A stretch of DNA of 64,000 bases from an uncultured Nitrososphaerales archaeon (GTDB lineage: Archaea > Thermoproteota > Nitrososphaeria > Nitrososphaerales > Nitrososphaeraceae): NCBI GenBank assembly GCA_963695855.1, contig CAVOHZ010000003.1, forward strand, positions 420,619 through 484,618. The letters are read 5' to 3'. Each line of letters begins with the position of its first letter. The stretch's first letter is position 1. A program made the position numbers and the translations under genes. Shown piece after piece: positions 22,554 through 56,129 of this stretch. The notes under the pieces are model-generated. The model was not told the origin of the DNA. It did no database searches and was given only the letters and a program-made list of their open reading frames with translations.

Positions 22554-23191
22554 TTAGTAATAAAATTACATAACGAAAGAAAACATATAAAGAAATCGCC
22601 TCTATCACTCACGCATCTATAAAGGATATAAAACCCTCAATAAAACATATGAGCTAGAGTTGGCACCAGAAATATAAAGAGGAGATGACCAAACTAAACC
22701 TATTAAAAAAATTTCTAGAAATAGTAGAGCATACGAATTATTGTTACAAAAAATCCAGTTGAGGTTACATCTGAATTATATTTGTGTTATGAGTAAAAAG
22801 AAAATTTTCACACGAGTTCGGTGGGACTAGGCTTGCTAGCAATCTGTTTTTGGAACTCTAGAATACAATATAATTTGAATTTTAATGCTAGTAATTAACT
22901 GATTTTCATCTATTTATTTAAGACAAACAACTAGCAAAATCTATGTTTTTACCAGTTGTAGGGGAATAATATAAAGTATGTAATACTCCCATATACTGGA
23001 ATACTGTAAAAAAAGGGGAGTATTCGAAAGTCCTACAAAGACAGGAAACATATCTGTCCGTATTTGCAAAAAGAAGAGCAAATACAGCCACATTAAACAA
23101 AAAATAAGAAATACAAAATTTTTATTCTAAAATCTTCTGCGACTCAGACTATTACTTGAATAGTAATATTGCTGGAGTAATGACAGATTAG

Positions 23192-24050
23192 TTAAAATAA
23201 AAAAATGTGGAGGTTATTAAATAGATTAGTTTGTAGCAAATCTAATATAGTTTTTGACCGTGCATACTTTATTTCCCCTGCTGCTAATGTTACGGTACTG
23301 CAATCGTTATCCTGTTCATCTACGTATTTGAAACATATCAGATATAGATTATTAGGAAGAGTTGGAAAACCAGGGTTGAACAGATCTCCACCATCAGAAA
23401 ATCCATTACTAACGCAACGTTCTTCGGTTTGTGTTTGTGGATTTGAATATAACACATTGGGAGGAAACAAGCCACTATCATCTTTTATCTCGTTTACTGC
23501 ATATGTACCTGCCTGTAGATTTTGAATCGTTGTCCCATCCACACTTCCTTCAAATTGCTCTAGTTGTGTATTCTGACTATCTAATACTTCTATATCGAAT
23601 AGATTTTCTGTTAATCTCTGACAGAATTTTGGATCGGTTGGATCGTTGGTGAATGCACCAGGATCGGTACAGGGAAGCCATCTTGAATCATCGTGCAGGT
23701 CTTCACAAGTCATTCGCGCCTCAGGAGTATCAGGATCAAAAATATTGCAACCAAATACCTCTTTTTTCACAGTCAATGAGGCTGTTTCTGGTTGTGTTAC
23801 ACGACTCTGTTCATTCACATTAACATTTACGCATATATTTACTAGATTCTTGTTAAAGTTTATTTTATCTGCAAAACCATTACCATTCTGTGCATTCCTC
23901 CATCTGGACCTGGCGCCTCTTCATTTGCTGCTCCTAAGGCAGTATCGTCATTAGGTATTTCGGTAATATCTATACCATTGATATCGGTGTTATCGTTTAA
24001 ACATGATATTTTCTGTATTTCTACCTGAGATCTTCCAACTGCATCTCCTG
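23192..24050 (-). pseudogene. Cys-rich secreted-type protein, 5' part degraded
   Basis: ORF 23192-23818 (ASLTVKKEVFGC...YAVNE...C....AAGE.K); upstream frames are broken (IQKISCLNDN.., VNICVNVN). Confidence 0.5.
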
Positions 24051-24815
24051 AATTTATGGTACTGGAAGAAATATGGAATATATCTAAAAACGATCTTCTG
24101 GTCCTACAATACTATCCATCATTTACAGATTTCAGAAATAAAATATCCATATATACTTTAGAACAAAAAGATTCAACCTTAATATGAGAAACCATTTGCT
24201 TGCTAAAATTGATAATTAGAAAACATAAGCTAGTTGGTATAGTTAGAAATGATTTTTAGGTATAATGTAAAATCCTCACAATAGCAATCTCGCTAGAGAT
24301 TTCAAGGTTCTGAATTATTGACTATAAGAAGAATTGAAAATGATGATTACGTAATAAGTATAATGTTGCGACGAGAGATTTCTATATAAGTATGGTTTTA
24401 AATACTATCCTAAAAGCCAAACTGGACCATAAACGGCTTAAGTAAAAATAGGTTATATACATCCGATTTTATATATACAAGCGAAATTCGTACAATTATA
24501 ACAGATTTTTATAATAATTACAGAACGATATTTTAGTTATAGTAAATTTTTATAAAAATAATAATTATAAACAATAAAATTTATATTCTAACTTTGTTAT
24601 ATAATACACACGTTCAAATTCTTTTGGGCGTCGATAAAGTGAACGTCTAGATATATCTGTCAACTATCTGGATGTTCACAATATAATGTTTTTTTGCTTT
24701 TACCATATTCCATGATCGGGTTCGGTGGAATGATACAGAAATTTCGATACAATCTAATTACATAGTGCAATGATTTTTAATAGTTATATGAATATAATGG
24801 TTTAGTATTGATAAA

Positions 24816-25202
24816 CTATTGTAATTCCTCTTTTATCTTATTTACCAATTCTTCTGCTTTAACAGATTTGCGTATAAAACATCCTACATTTAAATCAGGA
24901 AACTCTTTTTTTAATGACTCATAATAAACCTCATATCCTGTAACAAAGCACTTTTTTATGTCTAGATTTTTGTTTTTCTTTCTTATTTGTTTGTAAAATT
25001 CAAATCCATTCATCTCTGCCATCTTTACGTCAACTAAAGCCAAATCATATAATCTTGGTTTAAAAGTTGATAATGCTTCTAAAGGATTGGAAAATGAATG
25101 AACTTGAAAACCAGTATTTTCTAATATTTGTTTAATTGCTATTAAAAAATCGTTATCATCATCTACAAGTAAAATTCTGTAGAATGGTTGGGATTGGCAC
25201 AC
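24816..25202 (-). CDS. Stand-alone response regulator receiver
   Basis: ILLVDDD, DLALVDVKMAEMNG and FVTG. Confidence 0.92.
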   Translation of the reverse strand: MCQSQPFYRILLVDDDNDFLIAIKQILENTGFQVHSFSNPLEALSTFKPRLYDLALVDVKMAEMNGFEFYKQIRKKNKNLDIKKCFVTGYEVYYESLKKEFPDLNVGCFIRKSVKAEELVNKIKEELQ

Positions 25203-25265
25203 ATAGGATGGGAAGATAGGAGTAAAAAAATTTTATTGAAATAATGATTAATTTTTGATATACTT

Positions 25266-25526
25266 CTATTTAGTTGAAATTAATTCATCCTCAATCTGAG
25301 AGAATTCTTCTAATGCTGATTCAAGGTTTTCAACTATTTCTTGTGCTATTATGTTTGGTGTTGGAAGATTTTCAGAATCTTCAAGACTTGCATCTCTAAG
25401 CCAGAAAATATCAAGGTTGACTTTATCTCTTTTTAAAACTTCGTCATATGTAAAACCCTTGAATCTTTCCGTGCCTTTTCCTCTGTGTCTATTTTCAGGA
25501 TTATAGCATTGTATAAAATCTTTCAA
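25266..25526 (-). pseudogene. hsdM: Type I R-M methyltransferase (HsdM) C-terminal fragment
   Basis: DFIQCYNPENR...ERF..FTYDE...RDKVNLDIFWLRD.SLEDSENLP.P..IA.EIVE.LE.AL. Confidence 0.8.
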
Positions 25527-25583
25527 ATCTTCGTATTTTATTTTCCTCCAGTATCATAATCTTTTTAAAATAAAATTGTAATT

Positions 25584-26291
25584 TTAAACTAAACCAAATC
25601 CAAATGCTATAGCCATAATAGCCAATATTATTGCACTTATTTTTGGAAGATATTTAGTATAATGAATTATTTTATCTTGTATAGTAGTAATTACTTTAAC
25701 TGATAAAATTGTAATACCTATTAAAGCAACAGATACCGATAGAGCATATACAATCATTAACAATAATGGATTTACTCCTGCTGCTGCTAAAGAAAGTATT
25801 ACAAATTCTTCTTCATGTGCAAATCCTAATACTAAAGCAGAACCTGCTAATGCTGAGAGAGATGGTAATATTCTTATTTGATGTGTATGTAGATGTCTAT
25901 GAAATCCTTCATCTTTATGCCAATGAATGTGATTATGCTTAACCTCCTCAGAAAATTGGTGCAAATGACCATGTTGACTCTTCACTACATCCTCTGGTTT
26001 TTCTTTCCAAAACATATAAGCCAATATTCCAAGTGCAATTGCTGCAGCATAGTTGAGATAATTCTGAGGTACATAGATATAAGTGCTAAATAAAATAAAT
26101 GCTAAAACTACAACTATTGAAGAAAGAAAATGAGCCGAAGCAAGTATGCCAGAACTTAAAATACTACTTAGTAGAGGTTTTTTGCTTCGCAGTCAATACA
26201 AAACTGCTATTGTCCATCCATGCGATGGGTTTATTCCATGTAAAAAACCAAAAATGATTATACCAGATAAGATGGCTATTATTTCTTGCAA
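25584..26291 (-). pseudogene. His-rich Ni/Co transporter (NicO/RcnA-like) with one in-frame TGA
   Basis: Upstream in-frame FGFLHGINPSHGW..AVLY*LRS (TGA 26193-26195), His-rich loop, LGFAHEEE. Confidence 0.8.
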
Positions 26292-33816: not shown

Positions 33817-35433
33817 TTATTTCTTAAATTTTGGAGGATCGTATTCAATGTGGATATGAGGACCTGTTGTTACACCTGAAATAGGTTTATTATGTTCATC
33901 TACAATATCATAATCTTTCTCGAAAAGGCTTCTTAAATCCTTGACGATAGATTTTACTACGTCATTGGATAAATGTTTTGTTCGTAAATCAATAGCTTTT
34001 CCATAATCATGCAATGATTTTCCACCATCGGATCTCTTGGCTGATGTAATTTCACCAGGCAAGCCTGTGTGTTTTATGTATATTGCATTTATATCCGGAA
34101 AAATATTGAGCATTTTATCTGATAGACCAGCCATGTTTATTTTTCCGCAATCCCTACAAATTATTAGTCCACCATATTTATCATCAGCTTTTAAGGAATC
34201 AGCATTTAATTCGGAAGGACTTGTAACTAAGGGATTATTATATAAGTCACATAACTTTGCCCAGGTTTTTTCTCCAACTTTTCCATCTTTTACCAAACCA
34301 TTTTTGCCTTGGAATTGAATAACTGCTTTTTCAGTATTTGGTCCGAATTTTCCGTCTATTGCCTTTGGATCGTGGCCCAATTTCGTGAGAATAGTTTGAA
34401 GATTACTAACCGCAATTCCAGAAGAATCTTTCTTCAATAAGTCCTCAGCAGAATTACATAGAGTTGGTTCTTGGTCTATTGCTGCTAATTTTTCTAGGTC
34501 TGTTGCCCCTGTATCTGTACCAGAATCAGTTGTTGTCTCTGTACCAGCATCAGTTGTTGTCTCTGTTGCGCTTGTATTAGTCTCTGTATCTGTACCAGCA
34601 TCAGTTGTTGTCTCTGTTGTTGTCTCTGTACCTGCATCAGTTGTATCAGTCTCTGTACCTGCATCAGTTGTATCAGTCTCTGTACCTGCATCAGTTGTAT
34701 CAGTCTCTGTACCTGCATCAGTTGTATCAGTCTCTGTACCTGCATCAGTTGTATCAGTCTCTGTACCTGCATCAGTTGTATCAGTCTCTGTACCTGCATC
34801 AGTTGTATCAGTCTCTGTACCTGCATCAGTTGTATCAGTCTCTGTACCTGCATCAGTTGTATCAGTCTCTGTACCTGCATCAGTGGTTGTCTCTGTTGTA
34901 TCAGTCTCTGTACCTGCATCAGTGGTTGTCTCTGTATCTGTACCTGCATCAGTGGTTGTCTCTGTATCTGTACCAGCATCAGTGGTTGTCTCTGTATCTG
35001 TACCAGCATTAGTTGTTGTCTCTGTTGCGCCTGTATTAGTTTCTGGTTCTGTACCAGCATCAGTTGTTGTCTCTGTAACTGCATCAGTTGTATCAGTCTC
35101 TGTAACTGCATCAGTTGTATCAGTCTCTGTAACTGCATCAGTTGTATCAGTCTCTGTACCTGCATCAGTGGTTGTCTCTGTTGTCTCTGTATCTGTATCT
35201 GTTGTATCAACATCAGGTGTTTCTCCTTCTGCTGGTACTTGTTCCTCTGCAAATTGATCTGTTGTATCTGATGAACTAATATTTTCATTGATTATATCTT
35301 CTAAAGGTTCATCAGGTCCCTGACCATATGAAGTAGGAATATAAAACATAAAAAGAGATAGAACAAGACTGGCAAGGATTAAGATAATGGAAGTATAATT
35401 TTTAGTAGTTTTACTATTTAACATTAATAGCAA
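33817..35433 (-). CDS. Secreted peptidoglycan-binding-domain + M15-family Zn peptidase (endolysin-like)
   Basis: Signal peptide; Thr/Asp repeat stalk; PG_binding_1 (LQ..L..LG......[14 protein letters not shown]....L..DG.VG..TW); ITSAKR....SLHDYGKAIDLR...HIHIEYDP (HxxxxxxD...HxH). Confidence 0.9.
   Translation of the reverse strand: MLLMLNSKTTKNYTSIILILASLVLSLFMFYIPTSYGQGPDEPLEDIINENISSSDTTDQFAEEQVPAEGETPDVDTTDTDTETTETTTDAGTETDTTDAVTETDTTDAVTETDTTDAVTETTTDAGTEPETNTGATETTTNAGTDTETTTDAGTDTETTTDAGTDTETTTDAGTETDTTETTTDAGTETDTTDAGTETDTTDAGTETDTTDAGTETDTTDAGTETDTTDAGTETDTTDAGTETDTTDAGTETDTTDAGTETDTTDAGTETTTETTTDAGTDTETNTSATETTTDAGTETTTDSGTDTGATDLEKLAAIDQEPTLCNSAEDLLKKDSSGIAVSNLQTILTKLGHDPKAIDGKFGPNTEKAVIQFQGKNGLVKDGKVGEKTWAKLCDLYNNPLVTSPSELNADSLKADDKYGGLIICRDCGKINMAGLSDKMLNIFPDINAIYIKHTGLPGEITSAKRSDGGKSLHDYGKAIDLRTKHLSNDVVKSIVKDLRSLFEKDYDIVDEHNKPISGVTTGPHIHIEYDPPKFKK
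34625..34882 (-). repeat. 27-bp coding tandem repeat (TDAGTETDT), ~9 perfect units within a larger degenerate array (~34500-35210)
   Basis: Direct inspection. Confidence 0.93.
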
Positions 35434-36151
35434 GAATTGACTATTATAGATAAGGTTTTTGGTTAGAAATATCTCTATGAGTTACCACCCAAATACGTTG
35501 AACTATTTTAGTCGATATTGAGAAGACGGATTTACATCGTATCTTATCAATAACATGCAGTAGATAAGAAGATCTTGCCAGATCTAGATTTGATACAATA
35601 AGGTCACAAATGATTGGATACATATGAGATTTGTAGGATCTTTTACTACAGAATAAGGAACAGATATAGATGAGCAGATGTCAACACTTATAAGAAAAAG
35701 AGAACATTATGAATATGAAGTGGAATTGTGCGATCACCAATAGTGTTTTCGAACAACTGGATCGAAAGACAATAGTAAATATATAATTATCCGTTATGAT
35801 GTAATAATTATGTTACTTATTTGTGAATTTATTGCAAATAAAGATATTATATTGTCTAGAAAAATTGAAAAGTATTTCACTTCGAACTTCTCTTGTGGTA
35901 CATAAAACGGTATAAAAGGTTGAAATAAGGGACATTCTGCTTCCTACGTCTAAGACTTATTTTAAATATCTACCGTTATTCTAAAAACTTATGAAACATT
36001 TTCAATATGTATCTTCTGAAAAACACCAAAGTAACTCTCTACTAATAATTCTTCCATCTCTACGGGTTGTTCTTATTTACAAGTCGTTATTCGGTCTATT
36101 GAATCCATTTCTCTAGAGACAAAATTACTACAATTCTTTTGATTGAAATTC

Positions 36152-36420
36152 AAAGCTCATTGAGTTTGGATACGGTTATTATTTGTGAAGATATTTTTAT
36201 ACAAATTCACTAGTTTAACCTGTTGTTCAAAATTAAAAAAATTATGATATCTAATCACGGTAGATGTGCAACATACAATGGATCGACTCTCCTAACAAAC
36301 CTTAAAATTTGCTTGTTTATCAACGAATTCTTGATAAGTTTCAGTGTATGAAGAACCCGTTCCTACAGCCAACGGGTCATTAATATAAAGAATTGTGCCT
36401 TTCGGCGTGCAGTTAATAAT
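36152..36420 (-). pseudogene. Orphan C-terminal domain remnant plus 3' flank, copy B
   Basis: Minus strand CTPKGTILYINDPLAVGTGSSYTETYQEFVDKQ.../DPLYVAHLP* (stop 36255); 36152-36252 is nearly identical to 33214-33314. Confidence 0.7.
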
Positions 36421-36429
36421 ATCATCAAC

Positions 36430-39276
36430 TTATTTCTTATATTCTGATAAGTAAACCTCTTTGAAGTTTGGATAATTATATTCCCAATGCCATGGTTCCT
36501 GGTTAAATGGATGGAAATTAAAGTCTTTTGCAAATATAACCAGCCATTTATAAATAGACGAACCTCTCATATCCATTATGTTACTAAATGGTGAAGTCCT
36601 TCCTTCACCTGATACTGTTTTCCCATCCTGTTTAACTTCGAATTTTTTAATTCCGTCACTCATTTTTAAGTCAGCAGTTACTCCCAATGCATGCGAAATT
36701 CCTCCAATGGCATTAGGATTTTTTGCCTGCTCTGCTCTTTTCTCATCCAGGACTGGATCGCGATATGTTGAGAATGGAACAATTTCAATTCCCTCTCCTT
36801 TTGCAGCGTCCTGCATTTTAATAAACGAATCTACTACATGTTTGTTCATTCTTTGTTTGGAATAACCCGGAATTTCCTTAGTCTGCTTGTAAAAATAATC
36901 ATTATATTTTGTTTTGTCTTTTTGATATTCAGAGTTAGGTAGTATAGCATTTGATAGATGTGTAACACGATCTTCCAATATTATATTATTTAATTGATTT
37001 ACTAGTTTTCGAGTTTCACCTTCGTTAGGTCCTATAGGGTTGCCCAGATAATCAGATGGATCCCATTTGAATTGTTTGAATGCCTGTCCATCTTTTAATA
37101 AATCCAGAGTAGATACCTTTGGGTTTTTAACAAAATTGTTTAATATCAATTCTCTATGTTTATTCTTGTCAGTAGAAGAGGTACATATCTTTTCAATTGT
37201 TATCTTATCTGCAATTCCTGTTAGTGCTAACTTGTTAGAAATCTGAAACAATCTTACAGACATCTCCGTCTTAGGTCCAAATTTCTTTAAAGTTTGATCT
37301 AGTTCATATGGATAATATCCGAGTTCTTTAAGGTTTTTTTGAAGCATAACGATCTCGTCTCCTGAATCCCCTGATTTTAATTCAGGTTTTGTAATTTTAC
37401 AGATTTCTCTTTCTCCTACCTGTACAACATCACCACCAGGAGTAACACCACTTCCACTTCCAGGAGTAACACCACTTCCACTTCCAGGAGTAACACCACT
37501 TCCACTTCCAGGAGTAACACCACTTCCACTTCCAGGAGTAACACCACTTCCACTTCCAGGAGTAACACCACTTCCACTTCCAGGAGTAACACCACTTCCA
37601 CTTCCAGGAGTAACACCACTTCCACTTCCAGGAGTAACACCACTTCCACTTCCAGGAGTAACACCACTTCCACTTCCAGGAGTAACACCACTTCCACTTC
37701 CAGGAGTAACACCACTTCCAGGTTTACCTGATTGTGAGGTCGAATCTGTACTCTTTGCAGGTAACTTATCCTCTTCATAATCTTTCATGATTGCATCTAC
37801 AGCTGCGTCTGAATTCTTTTTCTCTTCATATAGTGCACATAACTTTGCCCATGTTTTTGCTCCAACTTTTCCATCTTTTACCAAATCATTTTTGCCTTGG
37901 AATTGAATAACTGCTTTTTCAGTATTTGGTCCGAATTTTCCATCTATTGCCTTTGGATCGTAGCCCAATTTCGTGAGAATATTTTGAAGATTACTAACCG
38001 CAATTCCAGAAGAATCTTTCTTCACTAATTTCTCAGATGGATTACAGACGATCTCTTCCTCTGGGAATGGGTCTTTTGTATCCACCTTTATGGGTGGTTC
38101 TTGGTCTGTTGCTGCTAGTTGTTCTAGGTCTGTAGCTACTCCTGGTTCTTGCTCTCTTGCTGCTAGTTGTTCTAGGTCTGTAGCTACTCCTGGTCCTTGG
38201 TCTGTTGCACCTGTATCAGTTGTTGTCTCTGTTGCACCTGTATCAGTTGTTGTCTCTGTTGCACCTGTATCAGTTGTTGTCTCTGTTGCACCTGTATCAG
38301 TTGTTGTCTCTGTTGCACCTGTATCAGTTGTTGTCTCTGTTGCACCTGTATCAGTTGTTGTCTCTGTTGCACCTGTATCAGTTGTTGTCTCTGTTGCACC
38401 TGTATCAGTTGTTGTCTCTGTTGCACCTGTATCAGTTGTTGTCTCTGTTGCACCTGTATCAGTTGTTGTCTCTGTTGCACCTGTATCAGTTGTTGTCTCT
38501 GTTGCACCTGTATCAGTTGTTGTCTCTGTTGCACCTGTATCAGTTGTTGTCTCTGTTGCACCTGTATCAGTTGTTGTCTCTGTTGCACCTGTATCAGTTG
38601 TTGTCTCTGTTGCTGTTGCTTCATCCAAAGCATCTACTACTCCATCACCATTGGTATCCATTTGGATTTCATCAACAGCAGCAGCAGAGGATGCATTATC
38701 AGTAGTTGTATTTGTTTCTGTTGCTGTTGATGCTTCATCCAAAGCATCTACTACTCCATCACCATTGGTATCCATCTGGATTTCATCAACAGCAGCAGCA
38801 GAGGATGCATTATCAGTAGTAGTTGTCTCTGTTGTTGATGCTGTTGTTTCATCCAAAGCATCTACTACTCCATCACCATTGGTATCCATCTGGATTTCAT
38901 CAACAGCATCAGTAGAGGATGCATTATCAGTAGTAGTTGTCTCTGTTGTTGATGCTGTTGTTTCATCCAAAGCATCTACTACTCCATCACCATTGGTATC
39001 CATCTGGATTTCATCAACAGCATCAGTAGAGGATGCATTATCAGTAGTAGTTGTTTCTGTTGTTGATGCTGTTGCTTCATCCAAAGCATCTACTACTCCA
39101 TCACCATTGGTATCTCCAAAACTTTCATCGGTTGTATTATCGCTTACAAACTGATCAGAATCTGTTTGACTATACGAAATAGGTGTATAAAAGATCAGAA
39201 GTGGTATAATGAGACTAATACTAACAAAAATTAAAAAAATGTTATTACAGTTTTTAGCTGTCTTGTTATTTAACAT
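36430..39276 (-). CDS. Secreted protein: DxNxDG repeats + Thr-rich stalk + two PG-binding domains + VanY-like (M15B) D,D-carboxypeptidase
   Basis: Signal peptide; 5x DTNGDGVVD; two PG_binding_1 units; F..MQDAAK.EGI.I...STYRD...[10 protein letters not shown]...WL...A..F.F.PF..EPWHWEY (SxHxxxxAxD- and ExxH-type motifs). Confidence 0.92.
37436..37722 (-). repeat. 24-bp coding tandem repeat (GSGSGVTP) x~12, linker between the PG-binding domains
   Basis: Direct inspection. Confidence 0.95.
38200..38610 (-). repeat. 27-bp coding tandem repeat (TTTDTGATE) x~15
   Basis: Direct inspection. Confidence 0.95.
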
Positions 39277-39604: not shown

Positions 39605-39672
39605 CATGATCTGGCTTTTAAGCTGTTTGAAAACCTTTTTTAGGATTATCTAAAATAACATCATATAGTGAA

Positions 39673-40449
39673 TTGGACGAAGTTAGTGAAGAAGTGATTG
39701 AAGATGAAGTAAAAATTCCAATTTCTGTACATGATACATATGAAAATAAAGATAAAATGTTGAAAGGAGTTTTCTCGATTCCTCCTAATTCCAATTTCCT
39801 GGTTATCTTTGTTCATGGTAGCGGAAGTGGAAAGAATAGTGAGAGAAACAAGTATCTTGCCCAATTTTTTAACAAGGATGGTCTTGCAACATTACTTGTA
39901 GACCTACTTACAGAGGATGAAGTGAATTCAGACATAAGAACAGAAAAAATTAGATGCAAAATTCCTGGACTTGTATTAAATAAGTTCAATATTGGGCTCC
40001 TGACAAAAAGAATCATATCAATAACCGACTGGATGATAAGAAATACTAGATTACAAGAAAAGAGATTTTTGATTGGATACTTTGGATCAAGCACAGGTTC
40101 TACAGCAATGATAGAAGCAATAGGTCATTTAGATTCAATTGTAGAAGGTGAAGATCTCATCAGTGTTTTAGTTTCAAGGGGAGGAAGAGTAGATTTGACT
40201 AAAGAGGATTCGTTGTCCAAAATTAAGATTCCCACTCTTTTTGTCATTGGACAAAGAGATCATAAATCAATTATTGAAAGTAACAAAAAAGTATTAGAAA
40301 AAATAAATTCTGAAAAAAAGAAATTGGTTTTATTGGAAGGTGCGTCCCATCTATTCGAGGAACCAGGTAAAATAGAAGAGGTGGCAAAAATAGCATCCGG
40401 ATGGTTTAGATGTTATTTTCAGATAAAAGCAAAATCGATTCAAGTTTAA
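39673..40449 (+). CDS. Alpha/beta hydrolase (dienelactone hydrolase-like)
   Basis: VIFVHGSGSG..S.RN, GYFGSSTG, VSRGGR.DL, GASHLFEEPG. Confidence 0.92.
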   Translation: MDEVSEEVIEDEVKIPISVHDTYENKDKMLKGVFSIPPNSNFLVIFVHGSGSGKNSERNKYLAQFFNKDGLATLLVDLLTEDEVNSDIRTEKIRCKIPGLVLNKFNIGLLTKRIISITDWMIRNTRLQEKRFLIGYFGSSTGSTAMIEAIGHLDSIVEGEDLISVLVSRGGRVDLTKEDSLSKIKIPTLFVIGQRDHKSIIESNKKVLEKINSEKKKLVLLEGASHLFEEPGKIEEVAKIASGWFRCYFQIKAKSIQV

Positions 40450-40899
40450 TAGCGGGTTATCAATGAATGAATTATTTGAGACAAGTGTCAAAGCTCGTTG
40501 GAAGATGAACTGAGCAGACTGCATGATGCCAATTACCATCATTATATGACTTTGAAGTGCGTTAGGACTTTCTATAATCTTAATCTCCTGATAGGTGCAC
40601 CATGTTATGATTGCTTATGCATTGCTAGTATATTGTCCCAGAAAGACTGAATTTCTCACGGGTTCGGTGGTATCCGTCATGCTAGCACTCTAATAAAAGA
40701 ATCCTAAGTAGGGTAAATAAAACAAGTTTATAAATTTTATGTATCGCTGTTATTGTAGATTTATTTTTAAATTCTGATATCTTCTCACGAGATAATAATG
40801 CCTTTCTTTTATGAAAATACATTTGAGAATTTCAATCCTAGAGGAGGCTCAGAATGCTCGGTTCCAAATTTAAGGGTCGACAGGGAACAATACCAATTT

Positions 40900-45815: not shown

Positions 45816-46632
45816 AATTTGTTTTGTTGTAAATAATAGTCAATTTCAGTCGGGTTCGGTGCAAATCATGAGGAATTCCACATGAGTTAACAATATCGAT
45901 ACAACAATAAAATTATAAAATCATATGTATTAATTAACTTCATTTTCTGTTTATATTTTTATGTGTTGATTATCTGTTCTATAAAATATATGTGTAAAGT
46001 ATCTTAAAATTTGTTAGATTGTTCATCATTGTCTTTTTCTTTTTGCTTACTGCAATAAAAGATGTTTGAGGTATCACATTTTCTACTTTTTTTCGTTGAC
46101 TTTACATAATCCTTCCAGTTCAAGACTTTTCGATCGACTATAGAATAGACCATGTAGAGTTGGTAGACAACAATCTTGGCTTCGCACATTCTGCAGGAAC
46201 TACATTCATGAAGATAATACAATATACTTTAGTTACTCATCGATCTACCTTTGTTATTAAAAATTTAAGTTCTATTTGCCAACCCAGCAAGGATTTAGAT
46301 CAATATAGCTGTACATATTTTCTATTATAAATAAAGATAAACCACTTTATCGTAATTGAATTTACATCCTTCGTAAACTTACCAAGCGGTTCCGGAACGA
46401 AGAAGGTGATCATTTCTACCCCCTTCTACTGCGGAATTATTGAAAATTTTGATTTTATATTGACAATATCGCTAGAGTAATAGATTTATAAATTTATAAA
46501 AATATTTTTTTAAATTGTTATAATATCATGAGAAAATAGAAAGATAGAACTATTGATACTATCTATATTATATAGCAATACTTTAAAAAATAGAAATGTG
46601 ATTAATTATACTAAGAAGTGAAGTAAAACAAA

Positions 46633-46767
46633 ATGAACGTTAGATCGTGCTATGGCTGCGATATTCCAATATATTGGCATCCCTCAAAGGGAGAATATTT
46701 GGAAGTGCAGACCAACAAGAAACATATTTGTGAATATCTAGAAAAAATACAACAAATACAAAAATAA
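46633..46767 (+). CDS. 44-aa zinc-finger microprotein
   Basis: Manual translation MNVRSCYGCDIPIYWHPSKGEYLEVQTNKKHICEYLEKIQQIQK (CxxC...HxC). Confidence 0.65.
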   Translation: MNVRSCYGCDIPIYWHPSKGEYLEVQTNKKHICEYLEKIQQIQK

Positions 46768-47183
46768 TAGTATTTCTATTTATCTATCTATTTATTCCAC
46801 AGACATAACATAATATAATATTTTATCATGTTAAATTACATGATAAAATAAAAAACAAATTTTTATTCTAAAAGCATATCCCAAGGATTATAAGGATAAG
46901 GAATTACAGGATGCAAGAAAAATATTTCAGCAATTAATGCTCCAAAAGGATGAAGAAATAAAATTAATAAAAACAGAACAATTAACTTATAAAGAGATGA
47001 TAAGAAGTGAAGTAGAAGACCACACAATATACAATGTCATAAAGTAACCAATGAGGTAGAACAACAAATTCTGGATTTACGTATAGCAAAAAGATTTGGA
47101 TGTAACCGGATCAGATTCAGGTAATAAATTGATTAAAAAAGAAAAGAGATACTTAGAGGTATTCTTCTATAAATATATTCATC

Positions 47184-47752
47184 TTGAGCTTAAAAAGTAC
47201 CAATATTTCGAATTTTATGTCAAGTAATGTGAAGACAAGTCAATTAACAAGACCATTATTCCAAATATGCCAAATTATGAAAAATAACAATATCGGCAGT
47301 CTTATAGTAGTAAATGAATCTAATGATCCTGTTCGAATAATCACAGAACGAGAGATAGTATACTGTAATGCGCAAGAAGAAGATACTCTACAATTACAAT
47401 CACAAAAGATTTACAATTACAATCACAAAAGATAATGACTTCACTAATTACAATTAAAGATTCTAATTCGTTAATAGAGGCCTTACAAATTATGCATTCA
47501 CATAACTTTAGAAGACTACCAGTAATTAATAATGAACAAAAACTAATTGGAATAATTACTGATAAAGATATAATTAAAGCCATTCTGAGTAATAAAGACT
47601 TGTTGTCTGATTATTATGACAGTAAAGAGTTTGAACCTTCTTATTCTATTTTGGAACAATTTCGGGATCGGATTTTTGATACTATTTATAACCTTGATTA
47701 TTTTCCATTTTTTTCTTCGTATCCAAACAATCTATTCAATATAGATTTATAA
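47184..47752 (+). pseudogene. CBS-pair protein split by a 23-bp tandem duplication
   Basis: IITERE and GIITDKD CBS motifs in two frames; TACAATTACAATCACAAAAGAT repeated at 47389 and 47412. Confidence 0.85.
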
Positions 47753-47980
47753 AAAATAAAAGTGTGAGATTTTATTGAGCAATGGAGATATGTTACCTAT
47801 TGGTAATAAAAACAAGTAAGAACAAACCTCATAGATTAAATCTCTAGAATCTCCAATTAAAAATATGACAGAAAGTAAAAATTTTATTAATATTATCGAT
47901 TAAAACTTGAAAATCTAGTTAAGTAATCTTGTCGCTAATATTGATTATTGAATTGCTATTACATTATTAATTTTCATGCT

Positions 47981-48829
47981 TATACCAATTAAGATAAATG
48001 TGTTTACTTACTCACCTCTAACCAGGTAATTTTTCATATCCAGATTGAATCTTTTTGTTCTAAAATATTTAGATATTTTATTTCTGAAATTGGTAAAGGA
48101 TGAATAGTATTGTTGTAGAACAAGCAGTTCGTTTTTGGCTATTTCATCTTTTCTTATCCAGACTCTTCTTACAAGAGAGTCATAGAAGAAAAATGATTCA
48201 TCTGTTGATACTACTGTGAACCCTGCCTGCTGGTGGTGTAGACTATCCAGTATCTTTCTGGCTCTTTTTTAAAACGTTCTTTCTCTTCTTTTGATGCAGT
48301 ATTTACATGTACTTTTCTTGGTACTTTCTGTTTGTATCCCCATTTTCGAAGTAATGTGTAGATGTAAATCTGATCATATTGTACACCGCTTTCTCTGACT
48401 ATGATATCATTAACCTGTTTTGTAGTCCAACCTTCTTTGCTAGATGAGAGTTGGCTTTTTATCTCATATACTGTCTCTTCTGGTATGTCAGGTGGTCTGC
48501 CAGTCTTTGATCTTTCTTTTAATCCTTCTATACCTTCTTCCCTGTACCTCTTTAACCAGTTTGAAGCTCATGTTCTACTTCTGTGAATATCCCTTGCAAC
48601 CTGTGCAGGGACCCTTTTGTCATATACTACACTTAAAACAAGCAACATTCTTTCCTTTACTCTAGTATCATGTTCAGATCTGTATATTTTCTAAAACCTT
48701 GTTTTTGATACCGTTGTTGTAGTCAAATGAATAGGTTGTATGCTTGCTATCTTAGCTATATCCATAATTATCTAAATTGTGTGACAATAATGTTAAATTA
48801 ATGTCCGAATACTTATATTAATTGGTATA
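47981..48829 (-). mobile_element. IS630 family element, internally deleted and non-autonomous
   Basis: Same TATACCAATTAA termini as 15712-16844; about 300 bp of the DDE region is missing near 48143. Confidence 0.9.
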
Positions 48830-48953
48830 GCTGAGGATATCCTCTCATATTCTATGAAAACTATGAAAGTAAATTGATTTTAGTTTATTGAAGATAAAGG
48901 GTTACAAATATAAATAAATCTTGTCAAATATATTACTATTATAATATAATACC

Positions 48954-50309
48954 ATGAGATCATCCTTTCAAACTGATAATAAAGGCTTTCTGAATTTTGA
49001 ATCTTTATACATATGGAAACAGCTAAAAGAGAATAGGGGAACGGGCTTACCTTGGTACTTCGCTGTGTCAACAAATCGGATGCCTGCCAAATACTTGATT
49101 TCCAGATCCATACCCTGTAAATTTATGGATTTATCAGGCATAAATGAACAAAAACTTTGGGAAGAATTTACAAATCTAACAAAAATATTCCTAGAGAGGT
49201 GGAAATCAATAAGATCTGAAGAAACTGACATAATAACCGAATTAAAACAACATAAGAAAACCTCACTACTGGATTTGACTGTTGAGCTTGTCAAACGCAT
49301 GCTAACACACTGCAACTTTTGTCGCTGGAATTGTCAGATTGACCGATCTAATCAACTAACAGTTAATGAAGACGGATCATGCCAGACTAAAACACATAAA
49401 AAGCGTGGTACTTGTCAGCTTGAATCAACTTCTAAAGTAAGCAGTTATTTTCATCATCGTGGTGAGGAACTTATTTTCAGAGGAACCAATGGATCAGGAA
49501 CAATTTTTTTTACAAGCTGCAATATGAGGTGCTCTTTTTGTCAAAATGGAGATATAAGCACAGACAAGGAAAATGGTATTCTTATTACCCCAAATAATTT
49601 AGCCTTAATGATTTGGCAGCTTAGAATGGAAGGATGTCATAATATTAACTGGGTTGGGGGTGATCCAACTATACACCTCCATACCATTACACAGGCAATA
49701 AGTATGCTCGACTCCTTCAAGATAGACTGGATAAATAATATAAAGGATCTTGATTATATTGAATCGGTCAAATCTGATAAATATTTTGACAATTCACCTC
49801 CTGATTCGGGATATGCATTCTATAAACAGTCTATATTCAATAGTCCACAGCTCTGGAACTCGAACTTCTTTATGAGTAGTGAGACAATGAGTATTCTGCG
49901 CACACTCATGGACGGCTGGCTACCAGACTTCAAGTTTGGTCCTGGCAAATGTGCGTTAGACCTTTCTAGAACTCCTTGGTACTGGGAAACTGTAACTAAA
50001 AATCTAAAACTTGTGCATCGATGGGGAGAGGATTTTGTAATACGTCATCTAGTAATGCCCAATCATATTGAGTGTTGTACTAATCCTGTTTTAGAGTGGA
50101 TTGCCAAGAATATGCCAGAAGTTCAGATCAACATTATGGATCAATACCATCCAGACAATCTATGTAATCCATTGTCCCCAAAATATAAAGATCGGTATAA
50201 TGAAATTGCAAGATCTCCCACCAAAGAAGAAATAAAAAGAGCATACAGATATGCTAATGATCTAAATCTTAACTTTAAACCATTATCTTTTGAGAAAAAT
50301 GTCTATTGA
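48954..50309 (+). CDS. Radical SAM protein, PflX-like
   Basis: C.FC.W.C..DR, GSGTIFFTSCNMRCSFCQN (CxxxCxxC), HNINWVGGDPT, LPDFKFG, IRHLVMPNH.ECC. Confidence 0.93.
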   Translation: MRSSFQTDNKGFLNFESLYIWKQLKENRGTGLPWYFAVSTNRMPAKYLISRSIPCKFMDLSGINEQKLWEEFTNLTKIFLERWKSIRSEETDIITELKQHKKTSLLDLTVELVKRMLTHCNFCRWNCQIDRSNQLTVNEDGSCQTKTHKKRGTCQLESTSKVSSYFHHRGEELIFRGTNGSGTIFFTSCNMRCSFCQNGDISTDKENGILITPNNLALMIWQLRMEGCHNINWVGGDPTIHLHTITQAISMLDSFKIDWINNIKDLDYIESVKSDKYFDNSPPDSGYAFYKQSIFNSPQLWNSNFFMSSETMSILRTLMDGWLPDFKFGPGKCALDLSRTPWYWETVTKNLKLVHRWGEDFVIRHLVMPNHIECCTNPVLEWIAKNMPEVQINIMDQYHPDNLCNPLSPKYKDRYNEIARSPTKEEIKRAYRYANDLNLNFKPLSFEKNVY

Positions 50310-50532
50310 ATATTGATAGAATAAGGATTTAAGTGGATTTAGATGTGTAGCCTTTATAATTTATTATTACAAATTGCATACATCAGAAATCAGCTGTAAT
50401 ACGGACTGAAAGGGGACTCAACTGTTTTTGACACAATTTTGTAGTTCGCCAAATTCTATGATAGGATTGTGTTTGAATTGTTATCATAATATAGTATCTT
50501 ATTTTTTTGAATCTATCTAAACCACGAATAAA

Positions 50533-52826: not shown

Positions 52827-53192
52827 CTATTTTTTATTAAAAACAATCTTAATGTCTCCAGAAGTACTGATCCATCTTCTACCACTTAATGCATTTTTTA
52901 CGTGTCCTTTTAAACTTTTGCGATAATTTTCAATTTTATCATCATCTATTTCTACAAAATCTACATTATCTATTTCTATGTTGAATCCCCCCATGTTGTG
53001 TCCCCCTCTGTTGAATCCCCTATTATTAAAAACAATTTTAATGTCTCCAACGCTTTTAACAAGCCTTGTAGTTAATGCATTTAATATTTCATCTTTTAAA
53101 CTTTTACGACATTCTTCAATATGATCATCAGTTATTCCTGCAAATTCTATATTATCTATCTCTATATTTATTGAATGACTTTTACCACTCAT
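52827..53192 (-). CDS. Hypothetical protein made of two tandem ~50-aa domains
   Basis: NIEIDN..F..I.DD.IE..RKSLK.....AL..R...S.GDIKIVFN occurs twice. Confidence 0.75.
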   Translation of the reverse strand: MSGKSHSINIEIDNIEFAGITDDHIEECRKSLKDEILNALTTRLVKSVGDIKIVFNNRGFNRGGHNMGGFNIEIDNVDFVEIDDDKIENYRKSLKGHVKNALSGRRWISTSGDIKIVFNKK

Positions 53193-53269
53193 TATTCATA
53201 ATTATAAAATACAATATTTAAAATTTTTTAACTCATAAAAATTGGATTAATAAATTAGATTTTATAGGT

Positions 53270-53690
53270 TTGAACTATTACCGCAAAATGGTTGTTTATG
53301 AGAATAAAATAGTTTCTTTATCTTCTGCAAAATTCATAGGATGTGCTGTTATAAGTAGTCTTCATACTCAACATAAAAAAACAGAGGATAATACTATTTT
53401 AAATGATCTAGGTTGGGAAATTTATCCCATTGGAATTTACAATATGGCTAAAATTCATAACAAATGTGCAATTATTCCAATTATCATAACTGAAAACGGA
53501 ATAGCAGATAAAAATGATAGAAATAGAGGTTCATTTATTATTGCTCATCTTGAACAACTAGGAAGAGAAATTAACGACGGGGATAAATATTATTGGTTAT
53601 CTCCATTGGTCTCTATTAGATAACTATGAATGGCAAGAAGGATATAACCCAGAAAGAAAATTTGGATTATTGTATATTGATCATGAAATT
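53270..53690 (+). pseudogene. Glycoside hydrolase family 1 C-terminal fragment
   Basis: NDLGWEIYP.GIY, IITENGIAD, then shifted frame HWSLLDNYEWQEGY....KFGLLYID. Confidence 0.85.
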
Positions 53691-54446
53691 TCACCATCTG
53701 TTTTTTATTTCGTGATAACCTATAATTGGAATAGCATTTATCTCTCCATTTTTATTAAAATATGTTTTATCGTTAACTACTTGTACGAATTTATCAAATA
53801 ATGCTTGTGATACCTCTGGTCCATATGGATCTCCTTTCAAGGCATGGTTAATTTTATAATGTACTCTATCATATGACCATTCCTTGATATCGAATTTAGT
53901 GGTAAACGTAGGTGTCCCATCAGAAAAATATGGTCTGCAATCAGTAGATACAGTATCAGAACCATAATTGGCTATGTATATTGTATTTGTATTTTCATTG
54001 ATAGCAATAGGTGTAGGCTTTTTTCCTACAGGTATGTCTTCTCCTACCTTTGCATTATTCTCTGCAGAAATTACAGATACAGTATCAGAACCACTATTGA
54101 CTACGTATATTGTGTCCGTAGAATAGTTGATATCAATAGCTACAGGCCCATCTCCTACATCAATCTTAGAACTTATTGCAGAATCCAAAGTTTGATTTAC
54201 CATATCATATAATGTTTTATTATGCAAGCTCAGTGCAAACGCAAATGCATTGTTTGTCAATATTATTACAAATGCAAAAGTTACTATCACCAACAGTGTT
54301 AGTAAAACAGATAGTAGTCTGGATGTATCATCTATTTGTTTACGTTTATTCCAATCTAGTTTTTCTAATATTGATGCATTGCCTTTTGAATCAGGGCAAA
54401 GGGTTCCGTTTTCTTGAATTCTCAGATTGAAGTTGACCACTGCCAT
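53691..54446 (-). CDS. YVTN/YncE beta-propeller repeat protein, probably truncated or chimeric
   Basis: IDVGDGPVAI.IN..T.TIYV.N.GSDTVSVI repeats; ends at PIIGYH (polysaccharide deacetylase-like start). Confidence 0.65.
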   Translation of the reverse strand: MAVVNFNLRIQENGTLCPDSKGNASILEKLDWNKRKQIDDTSRLLSVLLTLLVIVTFAFVIILTNNAFAFALSLHNKTLYDMVNQTLDSAISSKIDVGDGPVAIDINYSTDTIYVVNSGSDTVSVISAENNAKVGEDIPVGKKPTPIAINENTNTIYIANYGSDTVSTDCRPYFSDGTPTFTTKFDIKEWSYDRVHYKINHALKGDPYGPEVSQALFDKFVQVVNDKTYFNKNGEINAIPIIGYHEIKNRW

Positions 54447-54447
54447 C

Positions 54448-55746
54448 TCAAAATGAAAATTTCTCGTCTACTTTTTCTGATATCATGTCATGTTTTATTA
54501 TCCCGTTTTCAACATATGGAACATGACTTCTAAAAATACTCTTTCCTCGCTCTGGCTTTTCATGAGCTAGCAAATCCACTCGACGATCGATAAGAGCATC
54601 TTCGGCCACAACAGTTGTGCGTGGATCAATATCTTGTCTATTAGCTGTTTTAGACGAAATCTCTTTCAAGGCACTGAGTATACTTTGATAATCAACTGAA
54701 TGCATACCCAATACCCAATTTTCTAATAATTTATGTAATTTATGTTTCCACCAGTCAGCAATGTAACCTTGCATCACATATTGACCATCTGCAATCTTGT
54801 ACCAATATTCCTTCCAATGGTAATCTGTGCCCACACCCAAGACAGCACCATTCCTACTAACAATAATATCGTATCTTTCGGAATCTGGTAATTCCGGGGA
54901 TATGGTAAAGGGGCCACGCTGAACACGCATCCCAGATATTTCTAGGTTTATTTGGTCTTTGAACTGATTGTAGTTTAACCAAAAGAACCATAACCTAATA
55001 ATAAAATTGTTCTCATCCAGCTTGAATAAGTCAGTACAAAAAGTGGCTCCACGCATATCTCCGACAATCAATGCTATATCTTTTCGATCATCGAGTGTAA
55101 CTTGCACACTATCTTTATGATGTCCTGACTTGTTGATATTCAAATGTATTTTAAACTTGGGAATCTCAGAATGATTGTAATATCCATCTGAAACCAGTTT
55201 ATTTGACTCTGGAAACCATCTTGGATAATAAAGGCCAACTAATGTACCTTCATAAACTATTGTTTTTTTATCAATGGGTTCTTGGTGAACTATTTTTGAA
55301 CCGGTCTGAAGAGGATGGAGTTTAATTACAATATCTGGTTGTGGAGTATCTTTATTTAGTGCAAAAAGGTCCATTTTGATTCTAACTTTAAGGGTAAGGT
55401 CGTAAGAAGCCTGAAATTCACTTTTATGATCAATGAAAATATAGGCATACCGTGTTTGACCAACATCAAGGGAAAGTACACATCCTTCCTCATCTCCACC
55501 CCCCCAACTAAGAAGTATTCCAGATTCGTTCCGTGTGTCACTATCAACAAAACCACAACAATACTCATTATCCTTACGTGAATTTTTCGGCGTTATTGTG
55601 ATGGTCATCTTTTTTTGCTCTTCGTTCGTCACCCTTAGTTTTAGTGTTGAGACAGAAAATGGGAGGTAAGCAACGTTATGAGTGCCATCATGTGACTTGT
55701 CTGATGTATTTACTACAGCAATAGTGCACCTAACCACGAAATACAT
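54448..55746 (-). CDS. Hypothetical protein
   Basis: 432-aa ORF, visibly more GC-rich than its flanks; no family recognised. Confidence 0.75.
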   Translation of the reverse strand: MYFVVRCTIAVVNTSDKSHDGTHNVAYLPFSVSTLKLRVTNEEQKKMTITITPKNSRKDNEYCCGFVDSDTRNESGILLSWGGGDEEGCVLSLDVGQTRYAYIFIDHKSEFQASYDLTLKVRIKMDLFALNKDTPQPDIVIKLHPLQTGSKIVHQEPIDKKTIVYEGTLVGLYYPRWFPESNKLVSDGYYNHSEIPKFKIHLNINKSGHHKDSVQVTLDDRKDIALIVGDMRGATFCTDLFKLDENNFIIRLWFFWLNYNQFKDQINLEISGMRVQRGPFTISPELPDSERYDIIVSRNGAVLGVGTDYHWKEYWYKIADGQYVMQGYIADWWKHKLHKLLENWVLGMHSVDYQSILSALKEISSKTANRQDIDPRTTVVAEDALIDRRVDLLAHEKPERGKSIFRSHVPYVENGIIKHDMISEKVDEKFSF

Positions 55747-56040
55747 CTCTTATACATTTATAAAAAATTAACTACCCGCTTTATATGACTCACTTCCTTT
55801 TTTTGGTAGCAGCCGCAACGTGACAAAGGTAATCGTATAGAGACTTAATCATGGGTATTTGAAATAGGACATGTTAGCTCGGCTTTAGGTTCAGGGAAAA
55901 CAAATGTAGAAGATGCTATAAATCATTACAACAACGAAAAATGATATAACAACAAAAATCAAATACTTGAGAGGCATTTTCATTTAATATTGCTAGGATT
56001 TGTTAAAATATTATTGTTACCATTTGTAGTAACTTATAAT

Positions 56041-56129
56041 CGGGTTCGGTGGGATTCGGACCCACGACATTTTAACCCTCGAAAGACTGGTTAAGAGCCA
56101 GACGCTCTACCTGGCTGAGTTACGAACCC
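56041..56129 (-). tRNA. tRNA-Lys(CTT) with a 15-nt non-canonical intron (~56072-56086), no encoded CCA
   Basis: GGGTTCG acceptor pairs with CGAACCC; D arm CTCAGCCAGGTAGAG; anticodon arm TCTGG-CTCTTAA-CCAG|A; T arm GTGGG-TCCGAAT-CCCAC. Confidence 0.92.

Follow-up and report, generated by a model that had tools for sequence, protein, structure and literature searches.

Copies of the tRNA-Lys(CTT) 3' end beside its gene in a soil ammonia-oxidising archaeon: probable att scars of integrative elements

Introduction

The serial insertion of mobile elements at tRNA genes is a familiar route of gene gain in archaeal chromosomes. The question raised by the locus described here, which lies in a 64,000-nucleotide stretch of the genome of an uncultured Nitrososphaerales archaeon (the window), is why the last 12 nucleotides of a tRNA-Lys gene should be repeated over some 33 kb beside that gene, each time on the plus strand. 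Are these copies the scars of elements that targeted the tRNA, the products of later rearrangement, binding sites for a protein, or simply a coincidence of base composition? The original prediction had favoured the first of these, with at least 33 kb accreted by repeated insertion at the tRNA.

Copies of the tRNA-Lys 3' end

ARAGORN and Rfam agree on a single tRNA, a tRNA-Lys(CTT) whose length of 89 nt implies an intron and whose 3' end, in the plus-strand reading, is CGGGTTCGGTGGGATT (Table 1). The gene, syntenic with an Fe-ADH gene, is present in 10 relatives of the same genus. The sequence CGGGTTCGGTG is found exactly at 24717, 40659, 45851 and 56041, and with one mismatch at 22813, with all five on the plus strand. 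The four copies outside the tRNA all lie on its 3' side and share its orientation. They represent direct repeats of the intact tRNA 3' end (12/12, 12/12, 11/12 and 11/12 positions), with core-to-core intervals, the last of them reaching the tRNA itself, of 1.9, 16, 5.2 and 10.2 kb. The same-orientation copies of the original prediction are thereby confirmed, with coordinates correct to within 1-2 nt: the starts given at 24715 and 45850 take in one or two bases of flank, which agree with the tRNA flank as well, and 40660 becomes 40659.

The claim that such GC-rich matches are unlikely to arise by chance also holds, as 100 dinucleotide shuffles of the window gave a mean of 0.08 matches against the five observed and none of the 100 reached five. 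The genome-wide count that had been proposed as a check found nine exact 11-mers in 3.55 Mb (11 contigs), of which four are in the 64-kb window, and the motif is thus over-represented and strongly concentrated beside tRNA-Lys. Around eight further units, each consisting of a core and an adjoining arm, are found on other contigs, far from any tRNA-Lys. In the window copies the shared identity starts exactly at the last base of the tRNA, and at eight of nine sites on other contigs it ends exactly at the tRNA terminus; C10:277840 also has about 26 bp of the downstream hairpin, flank (i), in common with tRNA-Lys. Within 2.5 kb of 11 dispersed core-plus-arm sites the ORFs included no gene family common across the sites.

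Two other origins for the motif were considered and rejected. All core copies are intergenic, which disposes of a motif carried within a paralogous coding region, and a retro-element primer-binding site for a CCA-tailed tRNA primer would need TGG 5' of the core, where ATT, AGT or TCA is found instead.

Table 1 Features of the tRNA-Lys(CTT) locus, in window coordinates.
Feature	Position	Strand	Basis or detail
Possible sixth, decayed core copy CCGGATCGG (3-nt deletion)	15624-15632	plus	alignment to intact G014 copy
Possible decayed core copy with 31-bp arm common with G014	15624-15663	plus	G014 collinearity ends at 15663
IS-like repeat	15712-16844	n/a	up to 27 other copies in genome
IS5-family repeat, DUF4096 ORF at 21707-21964	21644-22565	n/a	up to 41 other copies
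Core copy (11/12) with decayed b-type arm	22813-22841	plus	palindrome TGCTAGCA at 22834-22841
Core copy (12/12) with a-type arm	24717-24753	plus	palindrome GAAATTTC at 24738-24745
Segment A (alpha/beta-hydrolase gene)	39605-40652	plus	98% identical to C5:7886-8938; ends 6 bp ahead of core
Core copy (12/12) with b-type arm	40659-40867	plus	palindrome TGCTAGCA at 40680-40687
Core copy (11/12) with c-type arm	45851-45889	plus	palindrome GGAATTCC at 45872-45879
403-bp insertion right behind c-arm	45890-46292	n/a	one X2 contig joins 45889 to 46293
IS-like repeat	47981-48829	n/a	up to 36 other copies; missing from one X3 metagenome contig, joint 47982->48826
Flank (i), hairpin GTTAC-N8-GTAAC directly downstream of tRNA-Lys	56016-56033	plus	sequence
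12-nt core CGGGTTCGGTGG: discriminator base, 3' acceptor strand and first T-stem bases	56041-56052	plus	sequence
tRNA-Lys(CTT), intron-bearing, presumed attB-bearing target	56041-56129	minus	ARAGORN and Rfam RF00005 (49 bits)

Flanks, arms and palindromes

The right arms fall into three otherwise unrelated families, and yet at 11 of the 17 non-tRNA sites examined positions +22 to +29, counted from the first base of the core, form a perfect 8-bp palindrome, with the sequence GAAATTTC at six sites, TGCTAGCA at four and GGAATTCC at one. These palindromes may represent protein-binding sites. The a-arm of the window recurs at C6:89981, C2:118269 and C3:374019 in the host genome, in two copies in the relative G010 and in G011, and in decayed form at C1:82302; in both the window and G010 it is directly 3' of a response-regulator gene. 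The b-arm copy at 40659 has 209 bp of homology (94%) with C5:27127-27335 that begins exactly at the core, and in this C5 counterpart an apparently frameshifted integrase gene ends 15 bp ahead of the core, a call that is soft, as are those of other broken integrase genes elsewhere in the genome, since the assembly contains indel errors. The c-arm is common to the window copy at 45851, C10:277840 and C10:1757565, with the homology between the first two beginning 1 nt ahead of the core. Homology breakpoints at the core are therefore found in both the C5 and the C10:277840 comparisons.

On the other side of the core, the immediate flank of tRNA-Lys is of at least three unrelated types among the 10 relatives. 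Flank (i) adjoins the same tRNA-Lys in G010, G004 and G011, as well as core copies at C10:277840 and at G011 L017:11282, whilst the GAAATTTCATT type, found at tRNA-Lys in G003, G005 and (more loosely) G016, is the left flank of most window copies. By tblastx, the DNA downstream of tRNA-Lys shows no conservation among the relatives past about 35-140 bp. The recurrence of flank (i) in three other species could mean that it is the native trailer, in which case the target site beside tRNA-Lys would be unoccupied.

Comparison with other assemblies gives some further boundaries. The closest relative, G014, has an assembly without the tRNA-Lys region; its collinearity with the window ends about 30 bp beyond the decayed 15.6-kb copy, on its right, but this is also about 50 bp ahead of an IS. 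Metagenome contigs, all from one study, diverge from the window around the border of the core, at 40670 (X2), 40673 (X3) and 56052 (X3), and a contig from X1 diverges at 40652, the end of segment A. The metagenome runs exist as contigs in which no more than 0.37 of the sampled words are present, the uncovered parts being uninformative, and among the contigs listed none bridges two cores across an interval. A loose end in X4 before 56041 coincides with the edge of tRNA conservation and is uninformative either way. Contig C11 of the host genome ends exactly at the core border within the tRNA, which is tempting as a sign of heterogeneity; it is given little weight because C11 serves as a bridging contig and its ends are rich in errors.

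Content of the intervals

The cargo between the cores comprises a response regulator, a transporter, peptidoglycan (PG)-binding and VanY proteins, phosphoesterases, a radical-SAM enzyme and a methyltransferase. Among the 44 ORFs of the stretch from 17 to 63 kb, a Pfam search found no hallmark genes for replication, packaging or conjugation, with cellular-type cargo and an IS5 fragment accounting for what was seen. IS and MITE copies are densely packed between 15.7 and 56 kb, and at C10:277840 an IS occupies the point equivalent to the 403-bp insertion. In the interval nearest tRNA-Lys, positions 46293-50365 have 95% paralogues on C10, one of which has a flank (i), a core and a c-arm of its own ahead of it at C10:277840.

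The left side of the 40659 copy, where segment A ends, is a secondary rearrangement junction and not the end of an element. C5 has counterparts of both segment A and the b-arm, 18 kb apart; the idea that the junction arose when an 18-kb element was excised from an arrangement like that of C5 was rejected, as C5:8938 lacks a core copy. In relatives, several interval genes have homologues that diverge about as much as the syntenic flanking genes do, but on scattered contigs, and some are paralogues of other parts of the host genome. Parts of the intervals may thus be rearranged resident DNA rather than foreign insertions.

Integrases and other tRNA genes

As the original prediction had it, there is no integrase in the window. 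Pfam found none among the same 44 ORFs, genome scans with PF00589 and PF16795 gave no match on contig C3 (PF16795 matches being restricted to C1:76865-78392 and C6:224754-225125), and tblastn of 14 integrase queries against the window returned a best E of 0.031, with no fragment beside any window copy. In SSV-type integration the integrase gene is divided into two halves, one on either side of the element; the window shows neither an attP within an integrase gene nor Int(N) and Int(C) halves flanking an insert.

At the same tRNA-Lys an integrase gene is present in two relatives of the same genus. In G003 a gene for a 420-aa protein starts 41 bp from the 3' end of the tRNA, and this protein, which matches PF00589 weakly (E 0.029), shares 28-29% identity over 250-409 residues with the PF00589-positive integrases of the host in tblastn (E down to 3e-30). 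A homologue (about 75% aa) occupies the same place beside tRNA-Lys in G016. A search for related loci with the G003 integrase returned the query's own record only.

Is the tRNA-Lys gene exceptional in this respect? As a genome-wide control, extra copies of 13-mers from the 3' and 5' ends of tRNAs were counted and proved far more numerous for the 3' ends, with 10 versus 2 for Lys, 15 versus 2 for Arg-TCG and 15 versus 1 for Val-TAC. For eight tRNAs picked for their many extra 3'-end copies, 22 of the 23 copies within 60 kb have the orientation of the tRNA and 21 are downstream of it. At least three other host tRNA or tRNA-like genes have same-orientation downstream ladders, two of them with an adjacent integrase. 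At tRNA-Arg(TCG) and tRNA-Val(TAC) an integrase lies directly downstream. The same tRNA-Lys also has ladders of direct repeats in other species, with two extra copies in G010 and one each in G011 and G012.

Origin of the array

The favoured explanation, to which a probability of around 0.7 is attached, is that the copies are att cores of tyrosine-recombinase integrative elements that repeatedly targeted the 3' end of tRNA-Lys(CTT). In the attP of each element, a 12-nt stretch imitating the tRNA terminus would lie between a left arm and a right arm, the latter with its 8-bp palindrome. Recombination with the tRNA gene, the presumed source of the core copies, would restore the tRNA and put a partial copy of it at the element's distal end, and each newcomer at the restored tRNA would displace the older elements outward. 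The outcome would be a ladder of copies in one orientation with internal junctions that resemble attP. The host array would then be a fossil, its integrase genes lost and its intervals altered by insertions of IS and MITE copies, by segmental duplication and by deletion.

How do the other explanations compare? Chance recurrence of a GC-rich 11-12-mer has the shortness of the match in its favour and nothing more, and it is refuted both by the shuffles and by the flanks, which form conserved families across contigs and species. That the unit of about 60 bp, a left palindrome, core and right palindrome, is a cis-acting protein site such as an operator or terminator, with a coincidental 12-nt match to the tRNA, would account for palindromes at a fixed offset, for the intergenic position of every copy and for the a-arm just 3' of a response-regulator gene in the window and G010. 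It is very unlikely, however, given that at nearly all sites the identity ends precisely at the tRNA terminus, that other host tRNAs show the same excess of copies of the 3' end alone, that relatives have an integrase at tRNA-Lys with the same left arm, and that no gene is consistently tied to the unit.

A more serious contender, though still an unlikely one, accepts the core-plus-arm units as genuine att or attP remnants and holds that the cluster was built mainly by IS-mediated rearrangement and segmental duplication rather than by successive insertions at tRNA-Lys. The IS and MITE content of 15.7-56 kb, the 95% C10 paralogues of 46293-50365 with their own unit, the presence of segment A and the b-arm on C5 at places 18 kb apart, the eight or so units elsewhere and the scattering of interval genes in relatives are all in keeping with this. 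Random relocation, on the other hand, would not yield four out of four copies that are downstream and in the tRNA orientation, and it leaves unexplained the 22 of 23 same-orientation copies near the eight selected tRNAs and the independent tRNA-Lys ladders of G010, G011 and G012.

Serial integration at tRNA-Lys is partly supported, as a probable account of the cores, which behave as att sites in the orientation of tandem integration, but not in the stronger sense of one element per interval or of insertion as the sole route of accretion. With no integrase in the window, intervals that are mosaics of IS, duplications and genes, and one secondary junction, serial accretion of 33 kb is plausible but unproven. 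The hydrolase locus does lie between two of the copies as proposed, with the hydrolase and PG-binding genes between 24717 and 40659. A more speculative and rather improbable idea is that the array is a working gene-capture platform, in which integrase-less cargo blocks with a 12-nt core, modular arms and three interchangeable fixed-offset palindromes are moved in trans, by integrases encoded elsewhere, between the tRNA-Lys site and the dispersed cores. If so, integron-like or CIME-like shuffling would be taking place at several tRNAs of soil ammonia-oxidising archaea.

Relation to known systems and significance

In streptococci, ICE and integrase-less CIME accrete in tandem at one att site, and mobilisation in trans has been demonstrated. 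The archaeal array resembles these in having integrase-less, att-flanked blocks in one orientation beside a site used by an integrase-bearing relative; the streptococcal systems differ in being bacterial and in this demonstrated mobility. In Sulfolobus, gene capture at tRNA genes by SSV-type integrases was reportedly described by She et al. in 2001-2004, with partial tRNA repeats bounding captured DNA that is unable to leave. Partial tRNA repeats likewise bound stretches of DNA here, but there are no integrase halves in the window and the core is 12 nt long as against the 29-69 bp of crenarchaeal att sites (Krupovic et al. 2019, PMC6563490).

Close parallels also exist with thaumarchaeal integrated mobile genetic elements (iMGE). 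According to Krupovic et al. (PMC6563490), thaumarchaeal att sites have a median of 17 bp and a minimum of 8, 39 of 68 elements are in tRNA genes, intron-bearing ones included, with all but one of the 39 at the 3' end, elements integrated by tyrosine recombinases form arrays by re-using one site, and many are 'cryptic' with ordinary cargo. The present locus has the same type of target, a core that fits the short att sites, ordinary cargo and a probably re-used site; it differs in having four to five scars and an array without an integrase, and its intervals would consequently fall outside that paper's definition of an element. On the same source, short att sites borne by tRNA genes are already described for Thaumarchaeota, as are arrays at sites used more than once, and the current understanding of archaeal integrative elements is unchanged by this array.

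For the organism, the implication is that in a soil ammonia oxidiser the 33-40 kb or so beside tRNA-Lys is variable and probably fed by horizontal transfer, which provides a context for the unusual peptidoglycan-binding and VanY genes within it. The fixed-offset palindromes offer an att-site architecture, open to experimental test, for a family of integrases that is hardly detected by Pfam. More broadly, several tRNA genes of the genus appear to serve repeatedly, through their 3' ends, as landing pads, with multi-copy ladders as the result.

Copies of the tRNA-Lys 3' end

The sole tRNA gene of the window is a tRNA-Lys(CTT) on the minus strand (56041-56129), which at 89 nt is therefore intron-bearing and whose 3' end reads CGGGTTCGGTGGGATT on the plus strand. 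The 11-mer CGGGTTCGGTG is found exactly at 24717, 40659, 45851 and 56041 and, with a single mismatch, at 22813, in every case on the plus strand; 0.08 matches are expected in shuffled sequence, and five were reached in none of 100 shuffles. The ladder of tRNA-end copies described in the original prediction is thereby confirmed. When the five sites are aligned, the 12-nt tRNA end, here termed the core, is the only part in common. Across the genome (3.55 Mb, 11 contigs, C1-C11, GC around 31%; the window is C3:420619-484618) the exact 11-mer occurs nine times, four of them inside the window, and a relaxed search (at most 3 mismatches over 16 nt) adds C2:118269, C3:374019, C10:277840 and C10:1223426. 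The motif is over-represented everywhere in this genome, and it is not equally frequent throughout, being about 25-fold denser beside tRNA-Lys. Around eight core-plus-arm units are distant from tRNA-Lys, and no conserved gene was found adjoining these.

Architecture and breakpoints of the sites

Identity with the tRNA starts at its last (discriminator) base in the window copies and in 8 of 9 sites on other contigs, the exception being C10:277840, which also matches tRNA-Lys over about 26 bp of its hairpin flank (i). The shared stretch covers 11-12 nt, with a weaker likeness over a few further bases. To the right of the core lie three unrelated arm families (a, b and c; see Table), each with one perfect 8-bp palindrome (GAAATTTC, TGCTAGCA or GGAATTCC) whose distance from the start of the core (+22 to +29) is identical across families; with relatives counted in, 11 of the 17 non-tRNA sites examined have a palindrome there. 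To the left, most sites carry flank (ii), of the GAAATTTCAnT type, and flank (i), a GTTAC-N8-GTAAC hairpin, is present at C10:277840 and at tRNA-Lys itself, where it might be the native trailer. A tRNA-end core with conserved arms and a fixed-offset palindrome has the look of an att site, and the palindromes are putative binding sites of a recombinase or accessory protein.

Coordinates of core-plus-arm sites, integrase copies and related units (positions without a contig name are window positions)
Feature	Genome	Position	Remark
a-type arm	this genome	24717, C6:89981, C2:118269, C3:374019	decayed at C1:82302 (= C9:839)
b-type arm	this genome	40659, 22813, C5:27127	decayed at C10:1223426
c-type arm	this genome	45851, C10:277840, C10:1757565	
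Extra direct core copies downstream of tRNA-Lys	G010	L013:4487 and 5447	a-type
Extra direct core copy downstream of tRNA-Lys	G011	L017:11282	a-type, (i)-like left flank
Extra direct core copy downstream of tRNA-Lys	G012	L011:7284	b-type
G003-type integrase copies	this genome	C5:25832-27112, C8:155780-156984, C8:107551-108695, C3:358131-358715, C3:367959-368850	
attP-like units, tRNA-Arg(TCG) family	this genome	C10:1217384, 1327255, 1328918	
Further GTGGGATTTGAACCC-type units	this genome	C3:349024, C8:119259, C8:157080, C8:172081, C10:1386027	

The window and C5 are homologous over 209 bp (94%), starting precisely with the 40659 core; on C5 a frameshifted homologue of the integrase of the relative G003 (50% identity) stops 15 bp before the core. 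With C10:277840, homology begins 1 nt before the 45851 core, is 39 nt long, and picks up again past an IS on the C10 side and a 403-bp insert on the window side, the latter missing from one metagenome contig. Contigs from metagenome runs X2 and X3 agree with the window across the 40659 core and part from it at 40670 and 40673, and an X3 contig matches 55787-56052 (flank (i) and core) before 54 nt unlike the tRNA body; these breakpoints, from few contigs of related strains and with both runs from one study, give the att reading weak support. The segment 39605-40652 stops 6 bp short of the 40659 core, on its left side; on C5 the segment continues into other DNA, where no core copy is present, so this left junction represents a later rearrangement.

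At 23244-24241 and at C10:1755-1779 kb lie members of a repeat family (roughly 230 bp plus 50 bp) that numbers dozens of copies; some of those on C10 follow each other in tandem with a period near 1.3 kb. There is one unit to the left of the 24717 copy, and there are two to the left of C10:1757565.

The same tRNA in related genomes

The tRNA-Lys(CTT) was located in 10 of 18 same-genus genomes. Its 5' side is syntenic, comprising genes for polyketide-cyclase-like, Fe-ADH, Snf7-like and CCA-adding enzyme proteins and the tRNA, and on its 3' side the genomes compared have nothing in common beyond about 35-140 bp. Among ten relatives with the tRNA, the immediate flank is of type (i) in G010, G004 and G011, type (ii) or (ii)-like in G005, G003, G016, G001 and G015, and neither in G012 and G017. 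In G003 a 420-aa gene begins 41 bp from the tRNA end; its Pfam integrase match is weak (PF00589, E 0.029), and its product aligns with PF00589-positive integrases of the genome under study at 28-29% identity over 250-409 residues (tblastn, best E 3e-30). A homologue of about 75% identity holds the same position in G016. These two genes, together with the extra direct cores in G010, G011 and G012, indicate therefore that the site has been re-used across the genus.

This integrase family, barely seen by Pfam, has five copies in the genome under study, 42-64% identical to the G003 gene and all frameshifted or partial in the assembly; those on C5 and at C8:156k share 86% DNA identity until the opening bases of two distinct tRNA-like cores. 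The evidence that integrase genes are broken is soft, since the assembly has indel errors: the 7.9-kb C3/C11 overlap shows 25 differences, among them an indel in the gene for the CCA-adding enzyme. That gene (60526-62017) forms two overlapping ORFs in C3, and between it and the C11 duplicate there is a 1-nt indel at 61030, which points to an assembly error and not a real pseudogene. C11 (17044 bp) is a bridging contig: it matches the end of C3 over 9100-17044 (99.7%) and the start of C1 over 2-4437 (99.9%), which makes C3 and C1 probable neighbours. Its end coincides precisely with the inner border of the core within tRNA-Lys.

Other tRNAs of the genome

Is tRNA-Lys exceptional? When 3'-end 13-mers (at most 1 mismatch) of 36 ARAGORN tRNAs are set against 5'-end 13-mers, extra copies number 10 versus 2 for Lys, 15 versus 2 for Arg-TCG, 11 versus 2 for Arg-TCT, 15 versus 1 for Val-TAC, 13 versus 1 for Leu-CAA and 30 versus 1 for a tRNA-like gene at C8:91508. 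For eight tRNAs picked for high copy number of their 3' 13-mers, copies within 60 kb of their own tRNA share its orientation in 22 of 23 cases and lie downstream in 21 of 23. For instance, 3'-end copies follow Arg-TCG directly repeated at +4.6, +5.9 and +10.5 kb, and Val-TAC at +13.9, +25.2 and +35.8 kb. Immediately downstream of each of these two tRNAs is a PF00589 integrase gene (C10:1147941 and C10:1701948).

Within C10:1147352-1157966, tRNA-Arg(TCG) is followed, from about 0.5 kb downstream, by an open frame of 444 aa that matches PF00589 (integrase). The gene at C8:91508-91603 has no ARAGORN assignment and an anticodon loop 'caac'; its 3' 13-mer has 30 copies in the genome, nine of them direct and within 39 kb downstream, a bigger ladder than that of tRNA-Lys. 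A related unit of about 35 bp consists of a T-arm-like GTGGGATTTGAACCC and a conserved tail.

Proposed serial accretion and its alternatives

We favour the reading of the core copies as att scars, with a probability of roughly 0.7. Parallels exist in Sulfolobus gene capture and in streptococcal ICE/CIME accretion. The original prediction went further, with at least 33 kb accreted serially at tRNA-Lys; the scars themselves are supported by the core, the arms, the relatives and the other tRNAs, but the amount of DNA and the equation of one interval with one element are unproven. Against simple stacking, no integrase or fragment was found in the window by Pfam, genome profile scans or tblastn with 14 queries (best E 0.031), just as had been claimed, nor was any replication or packaging gene found there. 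IS and MITE copies crowd 15.7-56 kb, 46293-50365 is a 95% paralogue of C10 DNA, and homologues of the Metallophos and radical-SAM genes lie on unrelated contigs of the closest relative, G014, which other parts of the present genome match equally or more widely. The dispersed core-plus-arm units, the rearranged junction left of 40659, the chance that flank (i) is the native trailer and the soft calls of broken integrase genes also count against it. That the array is a still-active platform, with modular arms and cargo shuffled by trans mobilisation, seems distinctly improbable.

The minus strand of 33817-39276 encodes a pair of large proteins, of 538 and 948 aa; PG_binding_1 is present in both, and the larger additionally has dockerin, EF-hand and VanY (D-Ala-D-Ala carboxypeptidase) motifs; this stretch has a GC of 36-37% versus 26-31% around it, and the gene for the larger protein contains four tandem repeats of about 69 bp each (37436-37720). 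Peptidoglycan-directed domains are odd in an archaeon.

For Thaumarchaeota, Krupovic et al. 2019 (PMC6563490) give a median att length of 17 bp and a minimum of 8. Of 68 elements, 39 are in tRNA genes, and only one of these is not at the 3' end; targets include intron-bearing tRNAs, and tyrosine-recombinase elements build arrays via site re-use. The tRNA-Lys locus works like these elements, but its array has no integrase inside, and it is thus classed as a decayed array.

How far does the variable region extend? The window is collinear with G014:C55 over 2231-15663 at 86-89% identity, and collinearity stops about 30 bp beyond a core copy, past which G014 has different DNA; G014 has this copy intact (CCGGTTCGGTGG), whereas the window has it in decayed form (15624-15632). 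As an IS begins at 15712, the break is explicable by an old att site or by the IS; if an old att site caused it, the variable region would span about 40 kb.
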